From: a virus
Lineage: Duplodnaviria > Caudoviricetes
IMG/VR virus record: IMGVR_UViG_3300050119_000364
Coordinates: 1 to 51,560 of that record
Strand: one strand, 5' to 3'
Length of the DNA stretch: 51,560 nucleotides
The notes below the pieces were generated by a model. That model had not been told where the DNA came from and made no database searches. It saw nothing but the letters and a program-made list of their open reading frames with translations. The translations under genes were made by a program, and so were the position numbers. Shown here one piece after another: positions 8,093-51,430 of this stretch. Positions within the stretch are counted from its first letter, which is position 1; the number at the start of each line of letters is the position of its first letter.

Positions 8093-8120
8093 AGCATGGG
8101 TTACCCTCGCCAGATTGCAA
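8093..8120 (-). promoter_or_regulatory. Leftward promoter TTGCAA-N16-CATGCT
   Basis: Reverse strand TTATCCCCACC-TTGCAA-N16-CATGCT-TAAGG. Confidence 0.65.
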
Positions 8121-8135
8121 GGTGGGGATAACCCC

Positions 8136-8163
8136 TTGCGGTTACGCGACAATCCGCTTTACT
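8136..8163 (+). promoter_or_regulatory. Rightward promoter TTGCGG-N16-TTTACT (leaderless transcript)
   Basis: Divergent from 8093-8120 around a shared DnaA-box-like 9-mer at 8123-8131; 7 nt between -10 and ATG. Confidence 0.55.
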
Positions 8164-8170
8164 TAAGCCA

Positions 8171-8326
8171 ATGGCATCACTCAGCTACTACGTGCGGAAG
8201 TTCGGCAAACGCGAAGGGAGGAAGCGGTACAACGAATTTCACAGGGGCTACAAGCAGGCGAACCGGGAACGGATTAACTCGGCGCGCAGGGCGGCGCGGA
8301 GGGCCCATAAACCAAGGGCCATATGA
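8171..8326 (+). CDS. 51-aa highly basic protein in the divergent control region
   Basis: MASLSYYVRKFGKREGRKRYNEFHRGYKQANRERINSARRAARRAHKPRAI; below the ORF-track cutoff; promoter directly upstream. Confidence 0.6.
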   Translation: MASLSYYVRKFGKREGRKRYNEFHRGYKQANRERINSARRAARRAHKPRAI

Positions 8327-8349
8327 ACCCTCAAAGTTATCCCCAGTTT

Positions 8350-8390
8350 GGGTTACGCGTCCTTGACGTAACCCTCCAGTGCGCTATTGT
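8350..8390 (+). promoter_or_regulatory. Early promoter TTGACG-N16-TATTGT with overlapping palindromic operator
   Basis: GGGTTACG-N9-CGTAACCC (8350-8374) overlaps the -35 at 8363; TTATCCCCA at 8337. Confidence 0.65.
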
Positions 8391-8503
8391 TAAGGCATGG
8401 TTGATAGGCGGTTCGGGGCGATCACCTCACCCGATTCCTCCGACGCAAGGGACCCAACCTCCGCCGCCTGTCCCTGTTCTCTTACGCGGTTCGTTCTTTG
8501 AAT

Positions 8504-8621
8504 GCTATGAGTGAGTCAGACCGATGGGCTAATGCACGTAGGCGTCGGTCGTCTGTTTCGACGGACAACAATCTGCAGGTTGTGCCGAGGTGCAGGGGTT
8601 CGAGTCCCCACCGCTCATAGC
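8504..8621 (+). ncRNA. tRNA-like multibranched RNA (non-canonical)
   Basis: 10-bp closing stem (8504-8513 with 8612-8621), T-arm GGGG-TTCGAGT-CCCC, three internal hairpins including a UUCG loop; no D-arm and no CCA. Confidence 0.7.
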
Positions 8622-8672
8622 TCTCAAAGCGCGAATCTAAAGGTCGCAAACTAACCAACCCCATCCCAATCC

Positions 8673-8819: not shown

Positions 8820-8941
8820 GAAACCCGTGCATCGAACGGGGAATCGAGGAGTGGGAAGCGGATTACCGCACAGGTTGCCGCCCCGACTACAACCCTTAAG
8901 GGTTCCCCGTTCAATCCAAAACAAACCTAAGCAATTAATCC

Positions 8942-9646
8942 ATGAAGTTCGAAATAAAGCACCGCTTGAATGGAGAAATCCTATTCAAAATAGAAACCGA
9001 TAGTTGGAAGCTCGCGGTAGAGGCCGCGATAAAGGCAAAAGCCAACCTCCGCTCCGCCAACCTCAGCTCCGCCAACCTCAGCTCCGCCAACCTCAGCTCC
9101 GCCAACCTCAGCTCCGCCAACCTCAGCTCCGCCAACCTCAGCTTCGCCAACCTCAGCTCCGCCAACCTCAGCTCCGCCAACCTCAGCTTCGCCAACCTCA
9201 GCTCCGCCAACCTCAGCTTCGCCAACCTCAGCTCCGCCAACCTCCGCTTCGCCAAGAACATTCCGCAGTCTTATATCAACATCTGCTCACGGGACATGCT
9301 TTTTGTCTTTGAGCATTTGAAATCGGAGCTTCCCTTTCTTCGTAAGGCGCTCATAGACGGAAAAGTGAATGGGACTCAGTACGCGGGCGATTGTGCGTGC
9401 CTCATCGGGACGCTCGCAAAAGCGAAGAACATAACCACGCCAGACGACATCGAAAAGAAGATTTGCCCGCTTATTCCCTTCTACGACATGGGGCTTCACA
9501 ATCCCGGCGAGCAGTGGTTCTGGCAAATCAGGGAAGGCGACACGCCCGACAAGAGCTTTTTTGCAAAGCACGCTGTAGAGCTAATTGATTCGGTCCTGAA
9601 AACGGCGACCGTCGTAAGGAAGCCGCGCAAACCAACGAAGAAATAA
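8942..9646 (+). CDS. Pentapeptide-repeat protein
   Basis: 14 ANLxx repeats; phage-type N-terminus and CACLIGT C-terminal domain. Confidence 0.9.
   Translation: MKFEIKHRLNGEILFKIETDSWKLAVEAAIKAKANLRSANLSSANLSSANLSSANLSSANLSSANLSFANLSSANLSSANLSFANLSSANLSFANLSSANLRFAKNIPQSYINICSRDMLFVFEHLKSELPFLRKALIDGKVNGTQYAGDCACLIGTLAKAKNITTPDDIEKKICPLIPFYDMGLHNPGEQWFWQIREGDTPDKSFFAKHAVELIDSVLKTATVVRKPRKPTKK
9041..9250 (+). repeat. Coding 15-bp tandem repeat, 14 copies
   Basis: GCCAACCTCAGCT(C/T)C units encoding ANLSS/ANLSF; first and last units encode ANLRS/ANLRF. Confidence 0.95.
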
Positions 9647-16864: not shown

Positions 16865-17386
16865 ATGCCCGCCATCGCGAAGGAAAGGCAGCAGTACCAC
16901 CTTTCCAAAGTCCGCTCCCTCATCGCGGAGAACCACCAGATCACCTTCGAAGAGATCGTCGAGCAGCTTGACCGCCGCTTCGGCTTGAAGTTCGACCGCG
17001 ACTACGTCACGAAGCTCGCGAAGAAGATATTTGTCGAGCGCACCAAGCGCGCTGACCGGCTGACGCTCAACTATGCGTTGGCCGCTTTTGACGATGCAAT
17101 GAACGCAGTGGTTCAGAAAGCGTGGGAGATTGCGAATGCCGACTACGTGAACCCTCAGGCCCGCGTCATGGCCCTCCGCGAGATCCGCGAGGCCCACAGC
17201 GCCGTCTTCGAGAAGCTCTTCGACGCCGGCGTCTTCGAGCGCAAGCTCGGCACCCTCGACGCCACGATCCGTAATACCCCGCTCCCCGAGGAACGAAAGC
17301 AGGCGATCCGCGTCGCCTTCGAGAACTGGGGCCTATTAGAAGCCCCGAAGGAGGATGTCCCACCCGCAAACACTCCAACAGCTTGA
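16865..17386 (+). CDS. Probable terminase small subunit
   Basis: HTH-like helical protein overlapping the terL start. Confidence 0.65.
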   Translation: MPAIAKERQQYHLSKVRSLIAENHQITFEEIVEQLDRRFGLKFDRDYVTKLAKKIFVERTKRADRLTLNYALAAFDDAMNAVVQKAWEIANADYVNPQARVMALREIREAHSAVFEKLFDAGVFERKLGTLDATIRNTPLPEERKQAIRVAFENWGLLEAPKEDVPPANTPTA

Positions 17387-18794
17387 CCCGTTCGATAACT
17401 TCGAGGCCCGCAAAGAGAGCAGAAAACACCTGCTCGGCTTTTCGCTGATCTACCTCACCGGCTACTTCACCGATCCTCCCGCAACCTTCCACGCACAGCT
17501 TGTCCACACACTTGAAGACGAGCATGAGCGCCGGGTCCTCATTCTCGGCTTCCGCGGCTCTGGCAAAAGCACGTTCGGCTCATTGGCCCTTCCCCTCTGG
17601 GCCGCGCTCGAATACCCCGAGAAATACCCCTTCATCATCCTCATCGCCGATTCGTCGCGGCAGGCGACCTTAAACATCTCGGCCATAAAGCACGAGCTTG
17701 AGACGAACACCCTCATCAAGCAGGACTACGGCGAGATCAAAGGGAACGTCATCGAGGACTTCAGCCTTCAGGGCGAAGGCGAGGAGTGGCAGAAGCAGAA
17801 CATCGTCCTTTCGAACGGCGTGCGCATCCTCGCCCGGTCGCGCGGCCAGAAGGTTCGCGGACTACGCCATCTCCAGCACCGGCCGAAGCTCATCGTCGTG
17901 GACGACCCGGAGGACGGCGAATGGGTGCGCACGAAGGAGAACCGCGACAAGACGGACCGCTGGCTCCATAGCGAGATCATGCCGGGCTTGGACGCCCGGA
18001 AGGGAAAGCTCGTCGTCATCGGGAACCTGCTGCACATGGACGCGCTGCTCTCACGCTTGAGAACGCCGGGCACGGGATTCACATGCCTCGAATTCCCACT
18101 CATCGACAAGGACGGCGTTTGCACGTGGCCCGCGATGTATCCCACGGAGCAGAGCCTCAAGGACAAGGAGCGCGACATGGGTGCGATCCCGTGGCAGCGG
18201 GAAATGCTCCTCAAGATCGTCTCGGACGACGAGGCGATCATAAAGCCGGAGGACATCCACTACTACGACGAACGGCCGGCCGGGATCGCCGCGATCAAGG
18301 GCCACGGCATCGACCTTGCGATCAGCCAGAAGGAAGGCGCAGACTACACGGCGATAGTCTCCGGCGAGGTGTTCTACGTCGAGAACGCGCCGAAGATCTA
18401 CATCCGGCCGAAGCCGTACAACGAGCACGTCACGTTCTTCAATTTCCTGCAGAAGGTCAGGAACATCCCCGGCGAGCTCGGCGGCGCGAACTTGTTCTTC
18501 GTGGAGGACGTGGCGTACCAAAAGGCGGCGATTCAGGAGATGGAACGCGCGCTATTACCCGTGGTCCCGATGAAGCCGCAGGGCGACAAGCGCGCCCGGC
18601 TGCAGGTGGTAGCGCCCTATATCAAGAACGGCACGGTACTATTCCCGCGCGCCGGATGCGAGGAACTGCTCGGGCAGATGTTCAATCTCGGCGTCGAGAG
18701 CCATGATGATTTAGTCGATGGCTGTAGCTATTTGCTTCAGGGCCTAGTCAATCAAGGGCTTGAATTGCCCAAAATCCATTGGATTGACACATAG
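17355..18794 (+). CDS. terL: Terminase large subunit
   Basis: GFRGSGKST Walker A, VRGL and IVVDDPE Walker B, GIDLA..DYTA and HDDLVD nuclease motifs. Confidence 0.95.
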   Translation: MSHPQTLQQLDPFDNFEARKESRKHLLGFSLIYLTGYFTDPPATFHAQLVHTLEDEHERRVLILGFRGSGKSTFGSLALPLWAALEYPEKYPFIILIADSSRQATLNISAIKHELETNTLIKQDYGEIKGNVIEDFSLQGEGEEWQKQNIVLSNGVRILARSRGQKVRGLRHLQHRPKLIVVDDPEDGEWVRTKENRDKTDRWLHSEIMPGLDARKGKLVVIGNLLHMDALLSRLRTPGTGFTCLEFPLIDKDGVCTWPAMYPTEQSLKDKERDMGAIPWQREMLLKIVSDDEAIIKPEDIHYYDERPAGIAAIKGHGIDLAISQKEGADYTAIVSGEVFYVENAPKIYIRPKPYNEHVTFFNFLQKVRNIPGELGGANLFFVEDVAYQKAAIQEMERALLPVVPMKPQGDKRARLQVVAPYIKNGTVLFPRAGCEELLGQMFNLGVESHDDLVDGCSYLLQGLVNQGLELPKIHWIDT

Positions 18795-20081: not shown

Positions 20082-22427
20082 GTGGCTTCACCCTCACTCA
20101 ACTCCAAAGGCAAGCCCGGCTGGTTCCCGCGCCTCATGCGCGGCATTGCTTCGCGCATCGACCCCGAGCTCTATGAGCAGCCGCAGGGCGGATTGACGTT
20201 CAACCGGTACGGCCTCACGAAAGCCGTAGGCGGCAAGTTCGGTGACATCGACACGAGCGGCAACCAGTTCGCGATCGAGCGGCCGGGCGGCGGCCATCAC
20301 ATCGACCCGGAGAAGGCGCTCGCGAACAACCGCGGCTACGTCTATGCGGCGGTGAACGCGAAGGCACGCGAAGTGCAGAACATCGACTTCCGGCTTTTCG
20401 AAGTGGATGGCGAGGACCACCGCGAGAAGGAACAGCATCCGTTGCTCAATCTCTTGGACGGCGTGAACCCGGACATGATCGGGTCAGAGCTCAAGTACCT
20501 CGTCTCATCGCATCTCGACCTCGTGGGAAATTGCTATTGGCTCCTCACCGATACGAAGGGCAATCCGGTGAAGGATGATCTCACGAAGCCCGACGCGATC
20601 TACCTTCTCGACCCTTCGAAGGTTAATCCCGTGATCGACAAGGTTCACTTCCCGTACCGCATCGTTGGCTACAAGATGAAGCTCGAAACGCGTAACGTCG
20701 TCTTCGATCCCTCGTGCATCATCCACTTCCGTTCGCCCGACCCCATGAACTTCTTCGAGGGCCGCGGCATCGTGCAGGCTGGCGCGGAGTTCATCGACAA
20801 CGACAACTACGCGATGGAGTTCAACCGGAAGTTCTTCGTGAACGGCGCGCGCCCGGCAGGCTTCCTTGAAACGGAGATGGTCTCGGAGACGCAGGTTGAG
20901 TCCCTCAAGATCGGCTTCATGGACGTCCACGGCGGCATCGACAACATGCAGCGCGTCGGCGTGCTTCCGAAAGGCGTGAAGTGGGCGCCGGCTGGGTCAA
21001 GCCCGAAAGACATGGACTTCAAGAACCTCAGCGAAGACATGCGCGACCGCATCCTCGCCTTGTTTGGCGTGTCGAAGACGATCCTTGGCACGGCCGAATC
21101 GGACACGAACCGCGCGACGGCCGAGACCGCGGACTACGTCTTTTCGAAGCGCGTCGTGAAGCCCCACATGCAGCGCATCTGCGATTTCCTGAACGAGAAG
21201 CTCGTCCCGCGGTACGGCGACAACCTCTACGTCAGTTTCATCGATCCCGTGCCTGAGGACCGCGGAGCGCGCACGACCGAGATGCAAGCGGCCGTCGGGA
21301 GCCAGCCGATTCTCACGATCAACGAAGCGCGCGACGAGTTCATGGGCTTGGGGCCGGTCGAAGGCGGTGATGTGCTCATGGCCCCGAGCACGATGGGTCC
21401 GGTCGGAGAGCCCCAAGGTGACGGCGATGTTGCGCCGGAAGCAGCCGGAGGGAGCGATGCGGGCAAGATGCTTCGGAAAGCGATCGAAGCCAAGATTCAG
21501 AAAGCCGCGAACGGCCAGCGGGTGGCTTTCAGACCTGCGCGCACGAAGCTCGCGAGCAGGGCAAAGGCGCGCCAGACAATGGCGGACGAGCTTACAAAGA
21601 GCATCACCGAGGCGCTCACGAAGAACCTCGCCGGCAAGAAGTTTGAATCGACAAAAGAACAGGACGAGACGCGGTGGAAGGAGTTTAGCGAGTATACCGA
21701 GCAGGCCGAGCGTGACATCGCGGAGACGATGCGCAAGATTAACGGCGAGCAGAAGGCGGAAGTTATCGCGAACCTTCCCACGGCGATCGGCAAGGGCGTA
21801 AATCCCAAGGACCTTTTCAGCATCGACAAATGGATCTCGATCACGACGGACGCCGTGACGCCGATCATGGAAACGCTCTTCGAGCATCAGGCGCGGAGCG
21901 CGGCGGCCGACATCGGCAAGCCCGAGCTCAATCCCTTCAACGACACGACGCGCGCGGCCGTGAAGGCGGGCGTCCAGAAGATGTCCGAGAGCTACCAGCA
22001 GACGACGCTTGAGGTCCTTGAGACGAAGATCAACGACGGCTTGCAATCAGGCGCGCCGCTTGCGGACATCACGAAGACGGTTGAGGAAATCTATGAGTGG
22101 TCGGACACGAAGCGCGCAGCGATGGTCGCGAAAACGGAATCCTTCAGGACCGCAAACGCCGCGCTCAAGGACACATGGAAGCAGTCTGGCGTCGTAAAGA
22201 CCGTCCGCTGGTATACGAGCGAGCTTGCGAACGTCTGCGGCTTTTGCCAGTCCATGGACGGCAAAGTGGTAGGCATTGACGACAACTTCTTCAAGAACGG
22301 CGACAGCGTCACGGCCGACGTGAACGGCAGCGAGCAAAGCATGTCGCTCGACTACGGCGATGTGAGTGCGCCGCCCCTTCACCCGCTCTGCGCTTGCTTC
22401 ATACGGCCCGACACCGTCTCGATCTAA
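20082..22427 (+). CDS. Portal protein fused to MuF/minor head morphogenesis domain
   Basis: HK97-like portal motifs (VYAAVN, FFVNGARPAG, KDMDF, FGVS..LG, TINEAR); C-terminal VAKTES, CGFC and PPLHPLCAC. Confidence 0.92.
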   Translation: MASPSLNSKGKPGWFPRLMRGIASRIDPELYEQPQGGLTFNRYGLTKAVGGKFGDIDTSGNQFAIERPGGGHHIDPEKALANNRGYVYAAVNAKAREVQNIDFRLFEVDGEDHREKEQHPLLNLLDGVNPDMIGSELKYLVSSHLDLVGNCYWLLTDTKGNPVKDDLTKPDAIYLLDPSKVNPVIDKVHFPYRIVGYKMKLETRNVVFDPSCIIHFRSPDPMNFFEGRGIVQAGAEFIDNDNYAMEFNRKFFVNGARPAGFLETEMVSETQVESLKIGFMDVHGGIDNMQRVGVLPKGVKWAPAGSSPKDMDFKNLSEDMRDRILALFGVSKTILGTAESDTNRATAETADYVFSKRVVKPHMQRICDFLNEKLVPRYGDNLYVSFIDPVPEDRGARTTEMQAAVGSQPILTINEARDEFMGLGPVEGGDVLMAPSTMGPVGEPQGDGDVAPEAAGGSDAGKMLRKAIEAKIQKAANGQRVAFRPARTKLASRAKARQTMADELTKSITEALTKNLAGKKFESTKEQDETRWKEFSEYTEQAERDIAETMRKINGEQKAEVIANLPTAIGKGVNPKDLFSIDKWISITTDAVTPIMETLFEHQARSAAADIGKPELNPFNDTTRAAVKAGVQKMSESYQQTTLEVLETKINDGLQSGAPLADITKTVEEIYEWSDTKRAAMVAKTESFRTANAALKDTWKQSGVVKTVRWYTSELANVCGFCQSMDGKVVGIDDNFFKNGDSVTADVNGSEQSMSLDYGDVSAPPLHPLCACFIRPDTVSI

Positions 22428-37211: not shown

Positions 37212-39014
37212 ATGGAATCCGACCTCGAAATCGTAATCTCTGCCATCGATGAGGCATCAGCTTCTTTTGATGAGGTGAGCGAATCCATGGCGCAGATGTC
37301 CGAAGCCGCAGAGGCATCGGCCGCCGCTACGGACGACTCATTCGAATCTGTTGGCCTCACGATCAATGAGGTTACCGGCGAGATTCAGAACGCGATGCTC
37401 TCCCAACAGCAGTCCGTCGACCTTCTCGCCGAGGTCATGCAGACCGACGTTGCGGAGATTCAGGAGCTTATCATCTCCGAAGGTATTTCGTTTCAGGAAG
37501 CCTCCGCCGTCATCGAGGAGGCCAATGCTGAAATTGCTGCGTCTTCGGAAGAAACAGCGACTACGTCTGCCGGCGGCTTCGCGGCGGTCGGCGCGGCCGC
37601 TGGCATCGCATTTTACGCGATAGAGAGCGCCGTGAGCGACGCGGTGGCGTCCGCCCAGCAGTGGGACGAGACCTCCGCGGTCATCTCGCAGGAACTCAAA
37701 AATATCGGCTCGTCCGTTCCCCTTTCGCAGGTTCAGGATTATGCGCAGCAGATCCAGTCCACGACACTGTTCAGCCAGCAGCAAGCACTTTCCTCCGAAG
37801 CGGTAGTCTTAGGGTTCCAGAATCTCGCGCCGAACTACGAGCAGCTGACAATCCTGTCCGCAGACCTCGCGACGAAGATGCAGCAGTTCACCGGATCGGC
37901 CACGGCGGATATGCCGAACGCGATGAAGATCCTCACGAATGCGCTCAACGACCCCGTCGCAGGATTGCAGCAGCTCCAACGACAAGCGGGCGTCGATATT
38001 CCCGCAGCGACTGTGACAATGATCAAGAATCTCGCCACGGTGGGCGATACTTCTCAGGCCGACGCCGTTATATTGCAGGCGCTCAATGCCCAAGTCGGAG
38101 GCTTGGCCCAGACGGCTGCGACTGCCGAGGGCGGACCGCTCACGCAACTTGAAAATCAACTCGTGGCAACCGGCACCACCATCGGCAATATTCTCTTGCC
38201 CGCGCTCGACGCTCTTGCCAAGGATTTAGAGCCCATCATCCAAGCCATCACCGCATGGGCGGAAGAGCACCCTAAACTCACCGAAGCGATTATCGCGGGC
38301 ACCTTGGCCTTCGTCGCTTTGGTGGCTGTGTTAGCAGTCGTCGGCATCGCTGTCGTCGCGATAGGCGCTGCATTTGGCGGTCTCGCGATCGCGATAGCCG
38401 CGGTTGTCGCAGTTATTGTTGGCGTTGTCGTTTCCAATTGGGATCTCATCGCAACCGATACCGCGACAATCTGGAACGGCATCGTTACGTTCTTCACGGC
38501 CACCTTCAACACGGTTAAAACTCTTTTTACTTCCTCACTCAATGAGGTCAGCGCCATTTGGCAATCCGCATGGACCGATATGGGCTCATTCCTCGGAAAC
38601 ATTTGGACCACCATCCAAAACACAGTGAAGACCGGGGTCGATTACGTCATCAGTGCAATCAACGCTTTCATCAATGCGCTCGACGCGCTCCACATTTCAA
38701 TACCCTCCATTGCCATCCCCGGCACCAAGCTAGGTACGCCCGCGGTAAATCTCGGCTTCAGTATTCCCAACATTCCCATGCTCGCGGATGGCGGCTTCGT
38801 GACGCAGCCGACCTTGGCGCTGATCGGTGAAGCCGGTCCGGAGGCTGTCGTACCGCTCTCCCAAATGGGCGGAGCCGCGGGTGGGGGCCAACAAATTGTG
38901 ATCAATATTAACGGCGGCATCTTCCCGGCAGACCAGTCCGCGATCAAGCAAATCGGCGACCTGTTGGCGAAATCGATCGTCACCCAGCTCAGAGTAAGGA
39001 ACTACGCCCCGTAA
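37212..39014 (+). CDS. Tape measure protein
   Basis: IVISAIDEAS start, Ala-rich helices, periodic W/F repeats, LADGGFVTQPTLALIGEAGPEAVVPL. Confidence 0.92.
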   Translation: MESDLEIVISAIDEASASFDEVSESMAQMSEAAEASAAATDDSFESVGLTINEVTGEIQNAMLSQQQSVDLLAEVMQTDVAEIQELIISEGISFQEASAVIEEANAEIAASSEETATTSAGGFAAVGAAAGIAFYAIESAVSDAVASAQQWDETSAVISQELKNIGSSVPLSQVQDYAQQIQSTTLFSQQQALSSEAVVLGFQNLAPNYEQLTILSADLATKMQQFTGSATADMPNAMKILTNALNDPVAGLQQLQRQAGVDIPAATVTMIKNLATVGDTSQADAVILQALNAQVGGLAQTAATAEGGPLTQLENQLVATGTTIGNILLPALDALAKDLEPIIQAITAWAEEHPKLTEAIIAGTLAFVALVAVLAVVGIAVVAIGAAFGGLAIAIAAVVAVIVGVVVSNWDLIATDTATIWNGIVTFFTATFNTVKTLFTSSLNEVSAIWQSAWTDMGSFLGNIWTTIQNTVKTGVDYVISAINAFINALDALHISIPSIAIPGTKLGTPAVNLGFSIPNIPMLADGGFVTQPTLALIGEAGPEAVVPLSQMGGAAGGGQQIVININGGIFPADQSAIKQIGDLLAKSIVTQLRVRNYAP

Positions 39015-46199: not shown

Positions 46200-46793
46200 T
46201 TGTTGGGAATTAAACTTCTTCCGGAAGATATTAGAGCAACGTATCAAATTGAAGAGCGCCACCACGCGTGCGCGATTCTCAAGCTCGATTTTCCCAACGA
46301 ATGGGATGATCTCATCGCGGTATTGCGCGACTTCACCCTCAAGAAGAGCGCAGTGCAGGCGAAGGGAGGACGCAAATCTCCGATCGCCGAATCGATCGAC
46401 GGGCTCTTTGCCGGACGCAAATGGGTGGAAAAGAATTTCGAGATCAACGTCACTGCCGACGGTGTTTCGACCCTCGCGCCAACGCATTTGGTGGACTACT
46501 ACAAGAACCGGATCGCCATCGAGACCGAATGGAATAATAAGGACCCCTTTTTCGATCGCGATCTAACGACGTTCCGTTTGCTCTTCGACTTGAACGTCCT
46601 GAGCGTCGGGATCATCATCACGCGGGCAGATGAACTGCAGCAGATTTTCAAAGACGTGGGCAAGAAGACCGCTGCGGGCGCGTCCACGACTCACATGTCG
46701 AAGCTGATTCCCAAGATGGCGAACCGCGCTGGCGGCGGGTGCCCTGTCCTCGGGTTCGGAATCACCATAAAGAAGTTCGACCCGAACGCCTAA
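46200..46793 (+). CDS. BglII/BstYI-family restriction endonuclease
   Basis: THLVD and IAIETEWNNKDPFFDRDL motifs; GGGCPVL. Confidence 0.85.
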   Translation: MLGIKLLPEDIRATYQIEERHHACAILKLDFPNEWDDLIAVLRDFTLKKSAVQAKGGRKSPIAESIDGLFAGRKWVEKNFEINVTADGVSTLAPTHLVDYYKNRIAIETEWNNKDPFFDRDLTTFRLLFDLNVLSVGIIITRADELQQIFKDVGKKTAAGASTTHMSKLIPKMANRAGGGCPVLGFGITIKKFDPNA

Positions 46794-47485
46794 ACCTCGA
46801 AGAGCAGCCTCTCACCCTCGGGCAGTCTTCCACTTTGCGAATGATTCGCGTACGTGTTCCACGAGGGCGTGTACGATTCGTCTGCTTGATTGCCCCATGT
46901 TGTCCAACCCTTACGCTCACCGCGAGCGAAGAGTTCGAGGAATGGACCCCTGCTGCACGACTCGATGATCTTGTACTGTTCATCCGGCTTCCGAGAGTGT
47001 TCCCGCTTCCGGCTCGACAAATAGTTCACTTGTCGGCGCCCCGGCGCGAGCGTACGCGCGTTCTCCCCGCGGACGCCAAAGAGAATCAACTCAGTAACAT
47101 TGCGGAAATAAAATCCCACGCCGCGCCCGTCCGAACCGCCGTCTTTGCGGATCTTGTGCCACACGAGATTGCTTTTGTATTTGAATCCCCACGCCTGCAA
47201 CACCGCGATTCCCTCTGGCAACAGGGCATTCGGGCACCAGAGGTAGAGGTGAGCCGTAGGGGCCGCGATCGAGGAGACCGGTAGCTTGATGATGTCGTCA
47301 AGCTTCAATGTCCCGTAACGCGAGAGGCGCTTATGCTCGGGAGCGACCTTGCCGGTGCGGTTCTGGAATTGCCACGGCGGATCGCAGAGGATCGTACCGA
47401 ATTTTCGTTTACCAACGAACCCCAGCAGATCTTCAGCGGGGGAATGGGTCGTGTCGCTTGCCCGGCACGTCTTCATAGCCCTCAT
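46790..47485 (-). CDS. MT-A70 family adenine methyltransferase
   Basis: DPPW, HLYLW, AWGF, REHSRKP and LELFAR motifs; start 47485 or 47476. Confidence 0.92.
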   Translation of the reverse strand: MRAMKTCRASDTTHSPAEDLLGFVGKRKFGTILCDPPWQFQNRTGKVAPEHKRLSRYGTLKLDDIIKLPVSSIAAPTAHLYLWCPNALLPEGIAVLQAWGFKYKSNLVWHKIRKDGGSDGRGVGFYFRNVTELILFGVRGENARTLAPGRRQVNYLSSRKREHSRKPDEQYKIIESCSRGPFLELFARGERKGWTTWGNQADESYTPSWNTYANHSQSGRLPEGERLLFEV

Positions 47486-47521
47486 GTTTGCATTTTCTTC
47501 GTCCCCCTGCAATTGGCAGAC

Positions 47522-47564
47522 TGTGGACAACAGGGCTTGAATTCCCAATCTGGCATGCCATGCT
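47522..47564 (+). promoter_or_regulatory. TGTGGACAA box plus promoter TTGAAT-N16-CATGCT
   Basis: Element-wide pattern. Confidence 0.6.
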
Positions 47565-47650
47565 TAAAGCGTCCCCAAACCATCCGCCGCCCTTCAATGT
47601 GGCGGCAGCGCGAATCAGCGCGGGCCGTGAGTGAGAGTACCGGCCGCATT

Positions 47651-48142
47651 ATGAAACCCCGAGTATGGATTCCCCTTCTTTTAGCCATTTTTGCCCCGTT
47701 TTCTCTTCCAGCCGCGTCCTATAGCGTCCAGCCCGCTTTTGCATCATCGACCTCTCCTGTGGTCATTTTTCAGCCCGAAATAGGCATCCTTGAGGAAGCG
47801 CAGCAGCTTTTCGCCAAATACGGCCCCCGACCGCCGTATAACGGCCCCGTCTTCGCGAAAAATGAGCCCCTAAGCCCTGAGGAGGCGTCGGACACCCTTC
47901 CTTTCATCCTCGCCTGCGAAAGCGGCGGCAGGGACGTTTCCGAGCTCGATAGCAATCACAAGATGAGCCGCGGCACGGCGCAGTTCCAAGACGCCACATG
48001 GGCCGAGCGGCAGGCGCAATCGGCCATTCAGGGGACTGCGACCGAAGCCATCCCCGCCGTCCTCATGTCCCTATGGTCTTTGGAACACGGCTATATTTCC
48101 CAATGGTCCTGCGCGGCGCTCGAAAAGATCATCGGCGCGTAA
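47651..48142 (+). CDS. Secreted lysozyme-like/lytic transglycosylase
   Basis: Signal peptide; ILACESGG, GTAQFQDATW and QWSC motifs. Confidence 0.8.
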   Translation: MKPRVWIPLLLAIFAPFSLPAASYSVQPAFASSTSPVVIFQPEIGILEEAQQLFAKYGPRPPYNGPVFAKNEPLSPEEASDTLPFILACESGGRDVSELDSNHKMSRGTAQFQDATWAERQAQSAIQGTATEAIPAVLMSLWSLEHGYISQWSCAALEKIIGA

Positions 48143-48275
48143 CGAAACGCCCCAACCCCCGTAGCACTTGATAGGCGGGTTTATGGGGACCTCGCCCAAA
48201 AGGTTCACAGGTCGGAATGGTCGAAACATTCTATGACCTTCCATTTTCAGAAAAGCTAAAAGAAATATCTTTTGC

Positions 48276-48324
48276 GCCGCCGATTTCTTCCGGTGTATTC
48301 CCGGGACGGCGGCTTTTTCTTTTT
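48276..48324 (+). terminator. Probable intrinsic terminator
   Basis: GCCGCCG..CGGCGGC stem followed by TTTTTCTTTTT. Confidence 0.65.
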
Positions 48325-48392
48325 CATTAGTAACCACAATGGTTCGTATTTCCTTCGCGCGAAACCGAATCCATAGTACTTTTCCAAGTACC

Positions 48393-48593
48393 ATGTTCAA
48401 CTCCACGGAACTTAATAACATTCGCCGAACCCTTGAATACGACAAACAGGACCTTCGCCGCTTTGAAAACGATCCCCACACACCCATAGAATCAATTGCC
48501 ACGGTAAAGGGGATTATCAAAGCAAAAGAGGCCAAACTCGCCTTCTTTAGCGATCTACCAGTTTTCCCCAGCCTCCCCCTTGCGCGATCCTGA
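48393..48593 (+). CDS. Small hypothetical protein
   Basis: 66-aa helical ORF; weak support. Confidence 0.4.
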   Translation: MFNSTELNNIRRTLEYDKQDLRRFENDPHTPIESIATVKGIIKAKEAKLAFFSDLPVFPSLPLARS

Positions 48594-48607
48594 AGGTTTG
48601 CTTCAAT
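48562..48607 (+). promoter_or_regulatory. TTTTCCCCA box plus promoter TTGCGC-N16-TTCAAT
   Basis: Element-wide pattern; points into a structured region with no credible ORF. Confidence 0.5.
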
Positions 48608-48612
48608 GAAGG

Positions 48613-49500
48613 TGTTCCCGGAAGGGAGCGACCGAGCGCAACGCATCCGACGAACCTTTTGACGGGTGCGCGTGAGGACGAAAGTTCTCCCACGGCTTAC
48701 AAGCCGTAAACGCGCCTCGGTCAAAGGGTTTTTAGTTTCACCTGAGAGTGAAGTCGCGCCGGGCAATCCGGGCGACGAGCAGGGCAACGCTTCTACGACT
48801 TTGCGACCCTGTAATGCGGAATGGGATTCGTTCATTGAAAGATGTGATGATGCAGCAGAGCGCGCGCTGACACCGGTTGCATGCAAAGGGGGCGCGGCGG
48901 AAAGCGAACTGCTTGTCTACCCAAGAGGGATACCTACCGCAAAAAGGCCCGGCCCGCGAACGTTAAACTCGACAATGCGGATCGAGTAGCGGGAACTTTT
49001 GGACAGGGTTGCTAAGCTGAAGCGAGACTGACGAATGGCATCGTCTGCTGGTGACAATGAGAAAGGCGCCGTTCGACGGAGCGGCGAGCAAGTACCAAAC
49101 AAACCCAGCCATCACATTTTTCAACGAGCGAATCACTGGGTAGTTTGGTAGAGCCACCGCAAACGGAAACGCCGTCAAGAACGGCCTCTGAATGACGCAG
49201 GAAATGTCCTCCGGCTTCGAGGGCAGAGAAGGGCGATCGGTTTCCCCGTCCAGCTTCGATCCCTGCGATCCAACACGAAACGGCAAATCGGCGACGAGAC
49301 ATAGCGAAGGGTGGAACACAAAAGAGCCGCGATCGTTCGTTCTTTGAATGCTGAAGGAAAGCATGGCAAGCGACGTTGGAAACCGCCGGAAGCAGCCATG
49401 TGGCTTCCAGCCCTTCAGCACTCAGAGAGCGAATCGCCGATTTTCAAAACAGACTTCTCGTCTGTAAAAAGTCGGATGGCAAATCAGCGGGAAATCTTAA
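48613..49500 (+). ncRNA. Large (~890 nt) highly structured non-coding RNA candidate
   Basis: No credible ORF; more than 20 stems visible, many with G-U pairs and GNRA/UUCG-type loops, nested multi-way junctions; boundaries approximate. Confidence 0.7.
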
Positions 49501-49665
49501 TTAGCCGCCCTTCTTTTCGGGTCTAGGCCATTCTTGGGTAGGCTGAACGCGTGAAGGAGCGGGGGCGCTATCGCCGATGCCTTCGTCAATCTTCCGAACA
49601 GGTCGTGGCGATGGTTGCGTCGGATTTAGGGGTTGTGTTGGATTTGGTTTTTTGTCCTCAGGCAT
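49501..49665 (-). CDS. 54-aa Pro-rich peptide
   Basis: MPEDKKPNPTQPLNPTQPSPRPVRKIDEG; GAGGA RBS; start overlaps the stop of the upstream gene. Confidence 0.55.
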   Translation of the reverse strand: MPEDKKPNPTQPLNPTQPSPRPVRKIDEGIGDSAPAPSRVQPTQEWPRPEKKGG

Positions 49666-50206
49666 TTATTTCCTCATGTTCTGGCGGAAACCAGCAATTG
49701 TTGATGTTGATTTCTTCATTTACGCGTGCTTCAAGTCTGCGAATTTTATTTGTATTAGGATCAGCCCCTTTTCTCTCGAGCTCTTTGAATTTGGAACGAC
49801 AGTGCTCGAAAGCGGAATTTGTCTTTTGTGTGAGATCGCGTGCGACAGTCACATCCTCAATTAGACACTTTAGATCCATGTAAAGATCACAGTAGTGTGT
49901 GTGTAATTCTGCATAAAGCCGGACCCGGCTTTCTAATCGAAGGATCGGTTTCAGGAGCGCCAGAGCTGCCGCTGCTATGGTGAGATAGAACCATCCTTGT
50001 TGTGCGATCGGGCGCGGAGAATGTTTCCAGAAGGCGAACGGAGAACTGCCACCGGTTATTGCAATCGCAATGTCGTATGCCAGAGCTATTCGAGTCCAAC
50101 ACTTGAGCGATTCCGCATAGTAGAGAACATTTAGGCGGGCGGTTCTGTACCAGTTATATGTCTGGATCATCCGCTCGTATTTGTTTTGCACCGCCGCGGC
50201 CGCCAT
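49658..50206 (-). CDS. Two-TM SLATT-like membrane protein
   Basis: Helix-TM-TM-helix layout; lower GC; directly downstream of the integrase. Confidence 0.65.
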   Translation of the reverse strand: MAAAAVQNKYERMIQTYNWYRTARLNVLYYAESLKCWTRIALAYDIAIAITGGSSPFAFWKHSPRPIAQQGWFYLTIAAAALALLKPILRLESRVRLYAELHTHYCDLYMDLKCLIEDVTVARDLTQKTNSAFEHCRSKFKELERKGADPNTNKIRRLEARVNEEININNCWFPPEHEEINA

Positions 50207-50225
50207 AGATATTCACATTTTACTC

Positions 50226-51278
50226 TCAGGGAACCCACGTCGCCTTCACCGCCTCATTCAGCGCATCCTGCCGCTGGGCGATCCAGTGCGAATACGATCG
50301 CTCGACGATCCGAGGAGTATTTCCCAAAATCGCCGCGACTTCGCTCACGGAGATTCCCTTTGAAAGCAGCTCGACGGCGAGCGTATGCCGGAACCGGTGC
50401 GCTGTAATTTTTATCTTTGCGATCTTCGAGAGCCGCAGGAGCGTCCTCTGCCAATCGGAAACCGCCGACTTCGGCTTCCCTTCTCCGGACCAGAAAAAAT
50501 ACTCGCCTTGCGGCTTCATCTCCTCGATCGCATTTTCGATCTCCGGGTGCACCGGAATCATGACCCTCTTTCCGTTTTTCGCGGTCCGGAGCGTGATGTG
50601 TCCGTCTTTTAATTTCGCCCGGTCGAGCTGCACCACGTCGCCGATGCGCAGGCCGCTCCACCGGAGGACGGAAATGAAGGCACGGAGCCGCAGCCGATTC
50701 CCTTCCCCGTAGATCCCCCACGCGGGGAATTTCGCGATCGCTTTCTCGATCTTTGCGAGCTCATCCGGCTCGTAGGGCTTGCGCTCGATCTCGACTTCTT
50801 TCGGCAGTTTGAGGGCTTTCGCCGGGTTCTTTTCCATCCATTCCCGATCAATCGCAAACCGGAAGAAGGAACGGAGCCGGGCGATTTTCATCCGCACGGT
50901 GATATTCGCGCCCTTGAATGTCTCCCTGAATTTCGCGACATCATCGACGGACAAGGTATGCACGGCGCGATCGCCGAAAAATGCGACCATGTCGCGCTTC
51001 AAAAGCCGGTATTTCCCTATCGTCGCTTCTGCCGCCTTATTCGCCTCGAACTGCCCGATGAAGCGGTCAAAGGCGTCCTCGATCGAGACCACGCTCCGCA
51101 TCCCGCGCACTTCCCAATCCCTCACGAGCTTCTGCGCGGCTTCCCAATTCGTGAGGTCGAGCGACTTGCGGATAGCTTCGCCGTGCAACGTGCCCTGCGC
51201 CCATATCGGGCATGAACACTTCGCCTTCCGCGACTTCAATTTGCATTTCGCGCGATGACGGCGGTACAGGGTAAGCAT
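50226..51278 (-). CDS. int: Tyrosine recombinase (integrase)
   Basis: SGLRIGD, HRFRHT, LGN and C-terminal Y catalytic residues; N-terminal RRH..C..CSCP; GGAGG RBS before ATG 51278. Confidence 0.96.
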   Translation of the reverse strand: MLTLYRRHRAKCKLKSRKAKCSCPIWAQGTLHGEAIRKSLDLTNWEAAQKLVRDWEVRGMRSVVSIEDAFDRFIGQFEANKAAEATIGKYRLLKRDMVAFFGDRAVHTLSVDDVAKFRETFKGANITVRMKIARLRSFFRFAIDREWMEKNPAKALKLPKEVEIERKPYEPDELAKIEKAIAKFPAWGIYGEGNRLRLRAFISVLRWSGLRIGDVVQLDRAKLKDGHITLRTAKNGKRVMIPVHPEIENAIEEMKPQGEYFFWSGEGKPKSAVSDWQRTLLRLSKIAKIKITAHRFRHTLAVELLSKGISVSEVAAILGNTPRIVERSYSHWIAQRQDALNEAVKATWVP

Positions 51279-51352
51279 GGCGTCCTCCCGAGTACGTATC
51301 GAGGACGCCATTGTAAACATCTTTCTAATCTATTGTAAACACATAACTTAGG

Positions 51353-51374
51353 TTGGTGGCGGCGGGTAGGATCG
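51353..51374 (+). repeat. att site within tRNA-Met 3' end, right boundary
   Basis: Identical to 106..127. Confidence 0.95.
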
Positions 51375-51430
51375 AACTACCGACCTTGGGGTTATGAATC
51401 CCACGCTCTAACCATCTGAGCTACGCCGCC
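51354..51430 (-). tRNA. tRNA-Met (CAT anticodon)
   Basis: GGCGGCGTAGCTCAGATGGTTAGAGCGTGGGATTCATAACCCCAAGGTCGGTAGTTCGATCCTACCCGCCGCCACCA folds as a 77-nt cloverleaf with CCA; elongator Met more likely than Ile2 or fMet. Confidence 0.93.

Follow-up and report, generated by a model that had tools for sequence, protein, structure and literature searches.

The stretch of DNA analysed here (the window) is a complete IMG/VR virus record, IMGVR_UViG_3300050119_000364, of 51,560 nucleotides (nt) from a temperate tailed phage, and its plus strand from 48,613 to about 49,490 probably encodes a member of a new family of large structured phage RNAs. An earlier note on this DNA, made from the letters alone, had proposed for this region a large non-coding RNA, either of a known class such as GOLLD or ROOL or of a new one. 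The second option was supported by seven homologous variants, conserved cores, compensatory changes, an asymmetry between the strands and the lack of a coding signal. These variants share a conserved, modular, non-coding and strand-specific structured element at a fixed prophage position, and their carriers are temperate tailed phages of peat- and permafrost-soil Acidobacteriota.

The build common to the variants consists of a promoter-like cassette, two nearly invariant cores, and variable or optional domains (Table 1). In the 5' domain, a long hairpin of differing sequence ends directly at a U-run in all seven variants, and its stem changes in a paired manner (GAC/GUC in the window, GGC/GCC in the variant L004). 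A long-range helix of about 19-26 base pairs closes a central domain whose sequence is not conserved and which folds separately in each variant within the same closing helix. From core anchor to core anchor the window has 320 nt and L026 has 83 nt, the five other variants having 125-200 nt. The 3' core includes a purine-rich, conserved and mostly unpaired stretch that extends to AAAAGAGCCGC. It is followed by a long hairpin, S5, present in five of the seven variants, absent from L004 and truncated in L007. In the 3' element, CUGUAAAAAGUCG and GCAAAUCAGC are invariant in all seven, and the sixth inner pair is C-G, U-A or G-C. Whole optional domains are gained or lost cleanly at helix bases, which is the usual mode of variation of large structured RNAs.

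The variable helices keep their pairing through compensatory changes. In a model comprising S5 and the tail hairpin (28 pairs, five sequences), 93.5% of 138 cells were paired, compared to 27-45% when the 3' partners were slid by 1-3 columns, and 10 of the 28 pairs were doubly changed, compared to 0-3 after sliding; none of 500 shuffles reached the observed values. For S5 alone, nine of 22 pairs were changed on both sides, with 92.7% of cells paired. Similarly, the long-range helix (18 pairs, seven sequences) had 98.4% of 126 cells paired, compared to 38-58% in the slid controls, and five doubly changed pairs, compared to 1-2 (0/500 shuffles). Ungapped tables of pairs agreed with the alignment-based results. 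Conserved helices with compensatory change beyond controls, the general mark of a structured RNA, were found in this way in a small sample of five and seven sequences. The alignment of the 5' core (A6, eight sequences) had 22 predicted pairs, one of which flips from C-G to G-C in three of the eight, and that of the 3' core (A5, seven sequences) had 56 predicted pairs, two of them doubly changed (GCCGU/ACGGC to GCGGC/GCCGC in L018). Because the cores vary too little, their fine structure is a prediction only.

Most of the helices listed in the earlier note recurred in the minimum-free-energy fold, in homologues or in both. The small hairpin at 48614-48629 recurs; the stem 48653-48663/48720-48730, with GAGGAC-GAAA-GTTCTC and ACGGCT-TACA-AGCCGT, is part of the minimum-free-energy fold and has homologous stems; the hairpins at 48753-48776 and 48779-48812 recur in the 5'-core alignment, and CGCAGG/CCTGCG with its two inner hairpins in the 3'-core alignment; and the GCTGAAGG/CCTTCAGC helix and the helices of 49437-49475 recur in homologues. 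Those inside 48849-49110 are specific to the window. The proposed pairing TACCAAAC..GTTTGGTA (49093-49150) is not supported by homologues; an insert specific to the window contains its 5' arm, and the conserved 48823-48848/49111-49136 helix is a competing structure.

The plus strand of 48,613-49,500 folded to -346.2 kcal/mol, whereas 20 dinucleotide shuffles had a mean of -309.0 (standard deviation 6.5); the expected folding beyond shuffles was thereby obtained (z: -5.71; 0/20 as good). For the minus strand z was -2.34, with one of 20 shuffles as good. The values per variant (plus/minus; 15 shuffles each) were -4.6/-3.2, -2.3/-0.7, -4.7/-4.1, -1.3/+0.05, -7.3/-3.1, -5.6/-2.3 and -3.4/-5.1, the plus strand having the lower z in six of the seven. 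The plus strand is purine-rich, with positive GC and AT skews, and GAAA occurs at about twice its expected frequency in all seven variants. Conserved G-U pairs are found in the 3' core (five, invariant), in S5 and in the long-range helix, and the opposite strand would consequently have A-C mismatches at these places. All three plus frames carry stops in the conserved core in 7/7 variants, and the only open reading frames (ORFs) of 48,613-49,500 are short plus frames and long minus frames. Judged by these features of the sequence, the region is non-coding and its functional strand is the plus strand.

After removal of identical copies, seven distinct full-length variants (577-892 nt) were available, from three IMG/VR records, nine metagenome contigs and two Acidobacteriota genomes (one titled Terracidiphilus sp.). 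Another IMG/VR provirus, which has a related integrase (66% identity), contains a shorter copy (L002/L004) in the neighbourhood of this integrase gene. An exact 18-mer of the 5' core retrieved 12 metagenome stretches, eight of them real (L007, L008, L009, L015, L016, L017, L018 and, with the 5' part only, L013) and four due to chance, and a 19-mer of the 3' core retrieved one genome contig, L019, titled as a Terracidiphilus sp. metagenome-assembled genome, whose copy is identical to L007. Sampling of genomes around the latter yielded one further carrier, G531 (L026), its copy having BLAST and tblastn statistics identical to those of the IMG/VR provirus L038. Carriers were rare among the genomes sampled, with one real carrier of 401 in a family-level sample, two of 401 plus one partial S5-like match in a genus-level sample, and the same two among 301 genomes in a sample of relatives of G531; the three samples overlap and the genomes are incomplete, so that non-carriers count as "not found" rather than absent. 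Other exact-word matches were rejected, either as chance by BLAST or reading (L005, L006, L010, L011, L012, L014, L020-L022, L025, L028, L029) or for lying inside ordinary genes (L033, L034). No match was found by blastn (distant mode) in a phage GenBank collection, and the 182-aa and 84-aa (amino acid) flanking ORFs, used as search handles, found no IMG/VR relatives.

Words of the RNA stretch were contained in 24 public runs, 23 of them labelled as peat or permafrost metagenomes and one without organism label; 22 of the 24 contained just about 5-11% of the words, which fits the conserved parts of relatives. The contigs of four runs were compared, and they matched in the promoter region and in both cores and diverged elsewhere, the parts of the stretch uncovered in these contig sets carrying no meaning. 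One variant type in the run contigs lacks the hairpin that bears the 5'-core 18-mer, so the family is more diverse than exact-word searches could detect. Two partial copies were also observed. L013 (1700-2488) has the 5' domain and the 5' core and diverges directly after CCCTGTAATGCGGAATG; the sequence beyond resembles, by eye, the start of a tyrosine-recombinase-like gene, and the copy looks truncated by an insertion. L027 (G552:C3:1745269-1748355) has at about 1501-1587, on the minus strand, a lone S5-like hairpin in a non-coding stretch, with 77% identity to window positions 49339-49424. Its neighbours are an ORF with an HNH-like look by eye and the C-terminal fragment of an integrase, and the hairpin may be a module common to several RNAs.

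In the window, the RNA locus is flanked by ORF 47333-48142, the last gene read rightward, and by the leftward ORFs located before the integrase. The gene order is constant in all five variants whose flanks are long enough (the window, L004, L007/L019, L018 and L026/L036/L038): upstream, a gene related to the C-terminal portion of ORF 47333-48142; then the RNA; then variable genes over 0.3-2.9 kb; a homologous integrase, encoded on the other strand; and a tRNA or tmRNA (transfer-messenger RNA) gene. The prophage end is a tRNA gene in the window and L007 and a tmRNA gene in L018 and G531. The L018 and L036 prophages are integrated beside a tmRNA gene, not a tRNA gene, with integrases homologous to that of the window (L036: 55% identity). 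Between variants the cargo proteins are unrelated: in L004 an AIPR/AbiU-like protein, in L026 a 265-aa membrane ORF followed by a DndB/DpdB-like protein, and in the window a 182-aa ORF without match in Pfam or PADLOC, the remaining cargo being a small lipoprotein-like ORF and small or membrane proteins without assignment. Going by these gene contents, the space between the RNA and the integrase is a slot for accessory and defence cargo. In the window the cargo is inverted and the next ORFs lie on the opposite strand, yet every conserved part of the RNA is intact. A related provirus fragment, L003, has the integrase, the MT-A70 gene and the neighbouring gene but not the RNA, and since both flanks occur without it the RNA is accessory to the phage.

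Across variants, the promoter-like cassette reads box, 6-8 nt, TTG(C/T)(G/A)C, 16-17 nt and a -10-like hexamer, equally spaced in six of the seven. The box of L015 is TTATCAACAG, and in metagenome contigs a box is also present just upstream, at loose contig ends. The upstream promoter claimed in the earlier note held as a conserved motif and failed at the threshold for the sigma-70 consensus; from the position of the cassette, transcription would start near 48,613. Copies of the box TTATCCCCAG with 0-1 mismatch lie at 8122-8131 (-), 8337-8346 (+) and 48562-48571 (+), and a 2-mismatch site at 47521-47530 (-) has the L004-type variant TTGTCCACAG. These four sites are at apparent promoters (a divergent pair in the ORF-poor 8120-8340, one upstream of MT-A70 and one upstream of the large RNA), and their arrangement suggests a shared regulator or a single promoter class. 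The box resembles TTATCCACA, which we take to be the DnaA box, but sites with up to two mismatches occur at chance frequency in the window (29 found vs 29.6 expected) and this idea was dropped; the box sites of interest are only those with 0-1 mismatch at promoters.

Behind the exact copy of TTATCCCCAG at 8337 lies a second candidate non-coding RNA (8330-8660, plus strand), with about 300 nt devoid of a good ORF, a folding z of -2.80 on the plus strand vs -0.88 on the minus, and no Rfam match at E≤10. An exact 18-mer is common to 8489-8506 and 49335-49352, the latter being the 5' strand of the S5 hairpin, and a matching 3' strand is seen by eye near 8626-8640. A tRNA T-arm-like GGGGTTCGAGTCCCC stands at about 8596-8612, where ARAGORN calls no tRNA or tmRNA. 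This second candidate (8395-8660) was not found in G917, G918 or G531.

Several observations weigh against the proposed RNA family and its independent role. The family comprises only seven distinct sequences, found through exact 18-22-mers taken from the cores, and the conservation of the cores is in part an effect of this ascertainment. The cores have few double changes (2/56 and 1/22 pairs), two L026 substitutions break predicted core pairs, and in the long-range helix many of the double changes set the window apart from every other variant, hence may represent few events. L007 (z: -1.3) and L004 (z: -2.3) fold only weakly better than shuffles, and in L026 the minus strand outscores the plus strand. 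A sigma-70 scan did not call the cassette, its hexamers being weak with respect to the E. coli consensus and below threshold. In one metatranscriptome library there are contigs of relatives at depth 8-13; one of them extends 112 nt upstream of the proposed promoter, and DNA carry-over is possible. No partner gene that would reveal a function is conserved beside the RNA. Finally, in six of the seven variants a co-oriented first cargo ORF begins 5-110 nt past the 3' motif GGCAAAUCAGC, with no terminator in between.

That the region is instead a minus-strand protein-coding gene or its remnant, represented by a 152-aa ORF (48963-49421) with similar open frames in other variants, is highly improbable. 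Across the 3' core, two of the three minus frames contain no stop, a state reached by just 3-4% of 5,000 mononucleotide shuffles, and gene callers called such ORFs in a few contigs; however, the minus strand is pyrimidine-rich, which leads to fewer stop codons. Insertions or deletions of 1 nt shift and break these frames between variants (three such columns plus one +1/-1 pair in the 3'-core alignment), and the 39 substituted columns of the 3' core split 13/16/10 by codon phase (p-value: 0.50), with no 3-periodicity. In the open minus frame, there were 0-1 synonymous vs 2-9 non-synonymous codon changes per pair (six pairs compared). None of the minus-strand ORFs, including that of 152 aa, matched Pfam, and a comparison of the latter with 5.8 billion proteins returned, apart from the ORF of the window itself, four entries, each from a single contig and covering 26-49% of the query. 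Among the variants there was no conserved open frame whose substitutions were codon-periodic and mostly synonymous, in agreement with the earlier statement that the region has no credible ORF. The region could also act as DNA, as a conserved stretch for regulation or recombination at the edge of a cargo hot-spot, its inverted repeats being protein-binding sites. It does mark the conserved left border of the variable slot in 5/5 loci with enough flank, the promoter-type box occurs at three other phage sites, and several variants fold below shuffles on the minus strand as well. Protein-binding DNA sites, however, do not need compensatory changes, which here keep intramolecular pairing up to about 300 nt apart; the conserved G-U pairs are mismatched in the complementary strand, and the strand is purine-rich and enriched in GAAA. 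We regard such a DNA element as quite improbable.

A very long cis-acting 5' leader of the accessory/defence cassette deserves more attention, although we consider it rather unlikely. Such a leader would control read-through, stability or translation of any inserted cargo, through attenuation at the 5' hairpin and U-run or through modification of RNA polymerase, as put does. The co-oriented ORFs in six of seven variants argue for it, some of them having a Shine-Dalgarno attached to the RNA end (in L007, AAGGAGG-N4-ATG), as does the lack of an intrinsic terminator downstream of the RNA in 7/7 variants. All seven also have the long hairpin abutting a U-run, about 100-130 nt past the putative start, an S5-like hairpin lies downstream of the second promoter of the same type (8337), and, by eye only, GCCGAUUU (49437-49444) has three alternative pairing partners: AAAAGUCGG, AAAUCGGC of the core and the terminal AAAUCAGC. 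On the other hand, the window keeps all conserved parts with no co-oriented gene following, and the unrelated cargo proteins offer no shared ligand or product that a leader could sense. Moreover, 0.6-0.9 kb and a 205-nt near-invariant core are far beyond the need of known leaders, and S5 is absent or truncated in two of the seven variants. Nor was the constant position before one gene family or related genes that would be typical of a riboswitch or cis-leader found among the variants, whose downstream genes differ.

We lean towards a self-standing structured RNA, serving as a protein scaffold or forming a self-assembling particle. It is favoured because the conserved parts all survive where no co-oriented gene follows, because the cargo is unrelated between variants, and because its size and its invariant, largely single-stranded purine-rich core far exceed those of known leaders. 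This RNA would be transcribed rightward from its own conserved promoter cassette and, by analogy with other ornate phage RNAs, would act through its fold, in either of these two capacities, being neither a simple antisense RNA nor a ligand-specific riboswitch. As no terminator follows the RNA, the transcript probably runs on into the downstream accessory and defence genes, and the RNA may additionally be their leader; the two readings are not mutually exclusive. Two other roles were examined and rejected. Complementary matches within the phage were of 19 nt at most and at chance level only, speaking against an antisense RNA to phage targets. For a sponge of Csr/Rsm proteins, GGA occurs 8-19 times per variant, at or below shuffle expectation in six of the seven and less than one standard deviation above it in L015.

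Membership of GOLLD, ROOL or another Rfam family, the other option of the earlier note, is excluded because the covariance models gave no match. All 4,227 families of Rfam 15 were run with cmscan, at gathering score on the window and at E≤10 with permissive filters over 48000-50000. The only match of the window at gathering score was the tRNA, and at E≤10 over 48000-50000 there were three chance-level matches to small unrelated families; ROOL, OLE, HEARO, raiA, group I/II intron, RNase P, tmRNA and 6S models did not match at the RNA. Eight related loci matched only one tRNA and one tmRNA, with no GOLLD, ROOL or other Rfam family in the seven other loci that carry a variant or part, and ARAGORN called only the tRNA-Met on the window. 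A search of the main texts of a collection of papers found neither an RNA of this kind described for phages of Acidobacteria nor any mention of the core motifs.

The new RNA is comparable in kind to GOLLD and ROOL and a member of neither. According to PMC12286853, GOLLD RNAs are encoded by phages or prophages, often exceed 800 nt, lie often near tRNA genes (one studied copy downstream of Met-tRNA) and show conservation of the 3' region and weaker conservation of the 5' region. The same source presents ROOL (rumen-originating, ornate, large) as borne by phages or prophages near tRNA genes, with no protein partner identified and, like GOLLD, of unknown function. OLE is described there as an ornate RNA of bacteria, large and highly conserved, whose working form is a ribonucleoprotein and a homodimer. 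Self-assembly into homo-oligomeric, RNA-only nanocages is the latest finding on GOLLD and ROOL (PMC12286853). The new RNA has the traits of the GOLLD type, being large (577-892 nt), prophage-borne, conserved in 3' and variable in its 5' and central domains, and located 0.7-2.9 kb from a prophage integrase beside a tRNA or tmRNA gene; the resemblance is only one of kind and not homology. It differs in remaining unmatched by the GOLLD model of Rfam at a threshold as loose as E≤10, in its carriers (Acidobacteriota, from peat and permafrost), and in that the tRNA or tmRNA gene beside it is the integration site and not a tRNA island. With ROOL it shares a large structured form, phages or prophages as carriers and the lack of an identified protein partner. 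It has no match to the ROOL model, its sequence and helices are unrelated, and whereas ROOL is described as multi-pseudoknotted the new RNA is known here from predicted helices with no established pseudoknot. OLE is chromosomal in extremophilic Firmicutes, with dedicated partner proteins encoded nearby; the new RNA, in contrast, is phage-borne, adjoins no conserved partner gene and has no match to the Rfam model.

Among phage transcripts, the put RNAs of HK022, which modify RNA polymerase, and the 6S transcript of lambda (pR'-tR') are promoter-proximal structured RNAs located before a terminator-like hairpin, and two or more related copies of cis-acting phage leaders are found in one phage, following promoters of a common type. 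The S5-like hairpin behind the second promoter of the same type in the window is a likeness to these RNAs. Unlike the new RNA, which is 3-10 times larger and has a 205-nt invariant core, they measure about 70-200 nt, and the window has no downstream co-oriented gene; put was compared by description only.

A bolder proposal, which we put forward as a tentative possibility, is that the new RNA is a giant ornate phage class unrelated to GOLLD, ROOL and OLE that folds into a particle or ribonucleoprotein of defined three-dimensional shape and has a functional link to the defence/accessory island, for instance by gating or insulating the expression of cargo or by acting in superinfection conflict between Acidobacteria phages. 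Phage or bacterial RNAs longer than 500 nt with an elaborate conserved structure form a very small group (OLE, GOLLD, ROOL, HEARO and a few others), and each of them has opened unexpected biology. A further class would be an independent example for why phages carry giant RNAs, for the generality of self-assembly and for links to hot spots of defence genes, here in Acidobacteriota, an abundant but poorly studied soil phylum, with the RNA at a fixed place beside a variable accessory/defence slot. The modular build provides natural constructs for structural work, with near-invariant cores and with peripheral domains that some natural variants dispense with (L004 without S5; L026 with a minimal central domain).

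Table 1. Features of the RNA locus, the phage genome and related loci (window coordinates unless a locus is named).
Feature	Position	Strand	Detail
Promoter-like cassette	48562-48607	+	box, -35-like, 16-nt spacer, -10-like
Box TTTTCCCCAG	48562-48571	+	consensus TTATCCCCAG
-35-like TTGCGC	48580-48585	+	
-10-like TTCAAT	48602-48607	+	
Variable 5' domain	48613-48735	+	small hairpin 48614-48629, then long branched hairpin
Closing stem of branched hairpin, AACCUUUUGAC/GUCAAAGGGUU	48653-48663/48720-48730	+	abuts U-run 48729-48733
Conserved 5' core	48736-48822	+	three hairpins, then junction UAAUGCGGAAUG
5'-core hairpin UUUCAC-CUGAGA-GUGAAG	48736-48753	+	
5'-core second hairpin	48753-48776	+	
5'-core third hairpin GCAGGG...CCCUGU	48779-48812	+	
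Long-range helix, 5' strand	48823-48848	+	pairs with 49111-49136
Variable central domain	48849-49110	+	within long-range helix
Long-range helix, 3' strand	49111-49136	+	
Nearly invariant 3' core	49127-49330	+	203-205 nt
3'-core hairpin GCCGU-CAAGA-ACGGC	49171-49185	+	
3'-core helix CGCAGG/CCUGCG	49196-49201/49262-49267	+	two hairpins inside
Optional long hairpin S5	49335-49434	+	outer stem 49336-49346/49423-49433; inner stem 49347-49357/49412-49422
3' element, outer helix CCGAUUUU/AAAAGUCGG	49437-49444/49467-49475	+	conserved
3' element, inner hairpin ACAGAC/GUCUGU	49449-49454/49460-49465	+	
Terminal motif GGCAAAUCAGC	49478-49488	+	invariant
182-aa cargo ORF	49658-50206	-	two hydrophobic segments, coiled-coil-like tail by eye
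Tyrosine integrase	50226-51320	-	Pfam Phage_integrase, E 7.6e-16
tRNA-Met	51354-51430	-	Rfam cmscan and ARAGORN; right end of window is prophage end
Large terminase	17355-18794		
Portal	20082-22427		
Tape measure	37212-39014		
MT-A70 methyltransferase	46790-47548	-	
AIPR/AbiU-like cargo protein	L004:7753-8934	+	Pfam 2.8e-27, PADLOC 1.6e-19
DndB/DpdB-like cargo protein	L026:2623-3354	+	2.4e-11 and 2.3e-15; preceded by membrane ORF
tmRNA beside L018 prophage	L018:6245-6599	+	
tmRNA beside L036 prophage	L036:16589-16941	-	

The gene upstream of the RNA was probably over-called, as judged from its alignment with relatives: ORF 47333-48142 (269 aa, plus strand) is conserved in them only at residues ~105-267, the opposite-strand MT-A70 gene overlaps its N-terminal part, and a signal-peptide-like MKPRVWIPLLLAIF... 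begins within it, near 47684. The conserved part looks Rpf/transglycosylase-like by eye and has no Pfam match. After this last rightward gene, a terminator-like hairpin with a T-run is conserved (window 48249-48322, with hairpin and T-run at about 48270-48320; L009:1-74, L003:2227-2257 and L004:6275-6308), the window and L009 being 98.6% identical there. Between this hairpin and the promoter of the RNA lies a second, smaller variable stretch, of about 240 nt in the window, where it includes the unsupported 84-aa ORF, and about 680 nt in L009. Elsewhere in the window, a 234-aa ORF (8942-9646, plus strand) has a long run of pentapeptide repeats (SANLS...), and a mirror repeat ORF is found at 8935-9261 on the opposite strand.

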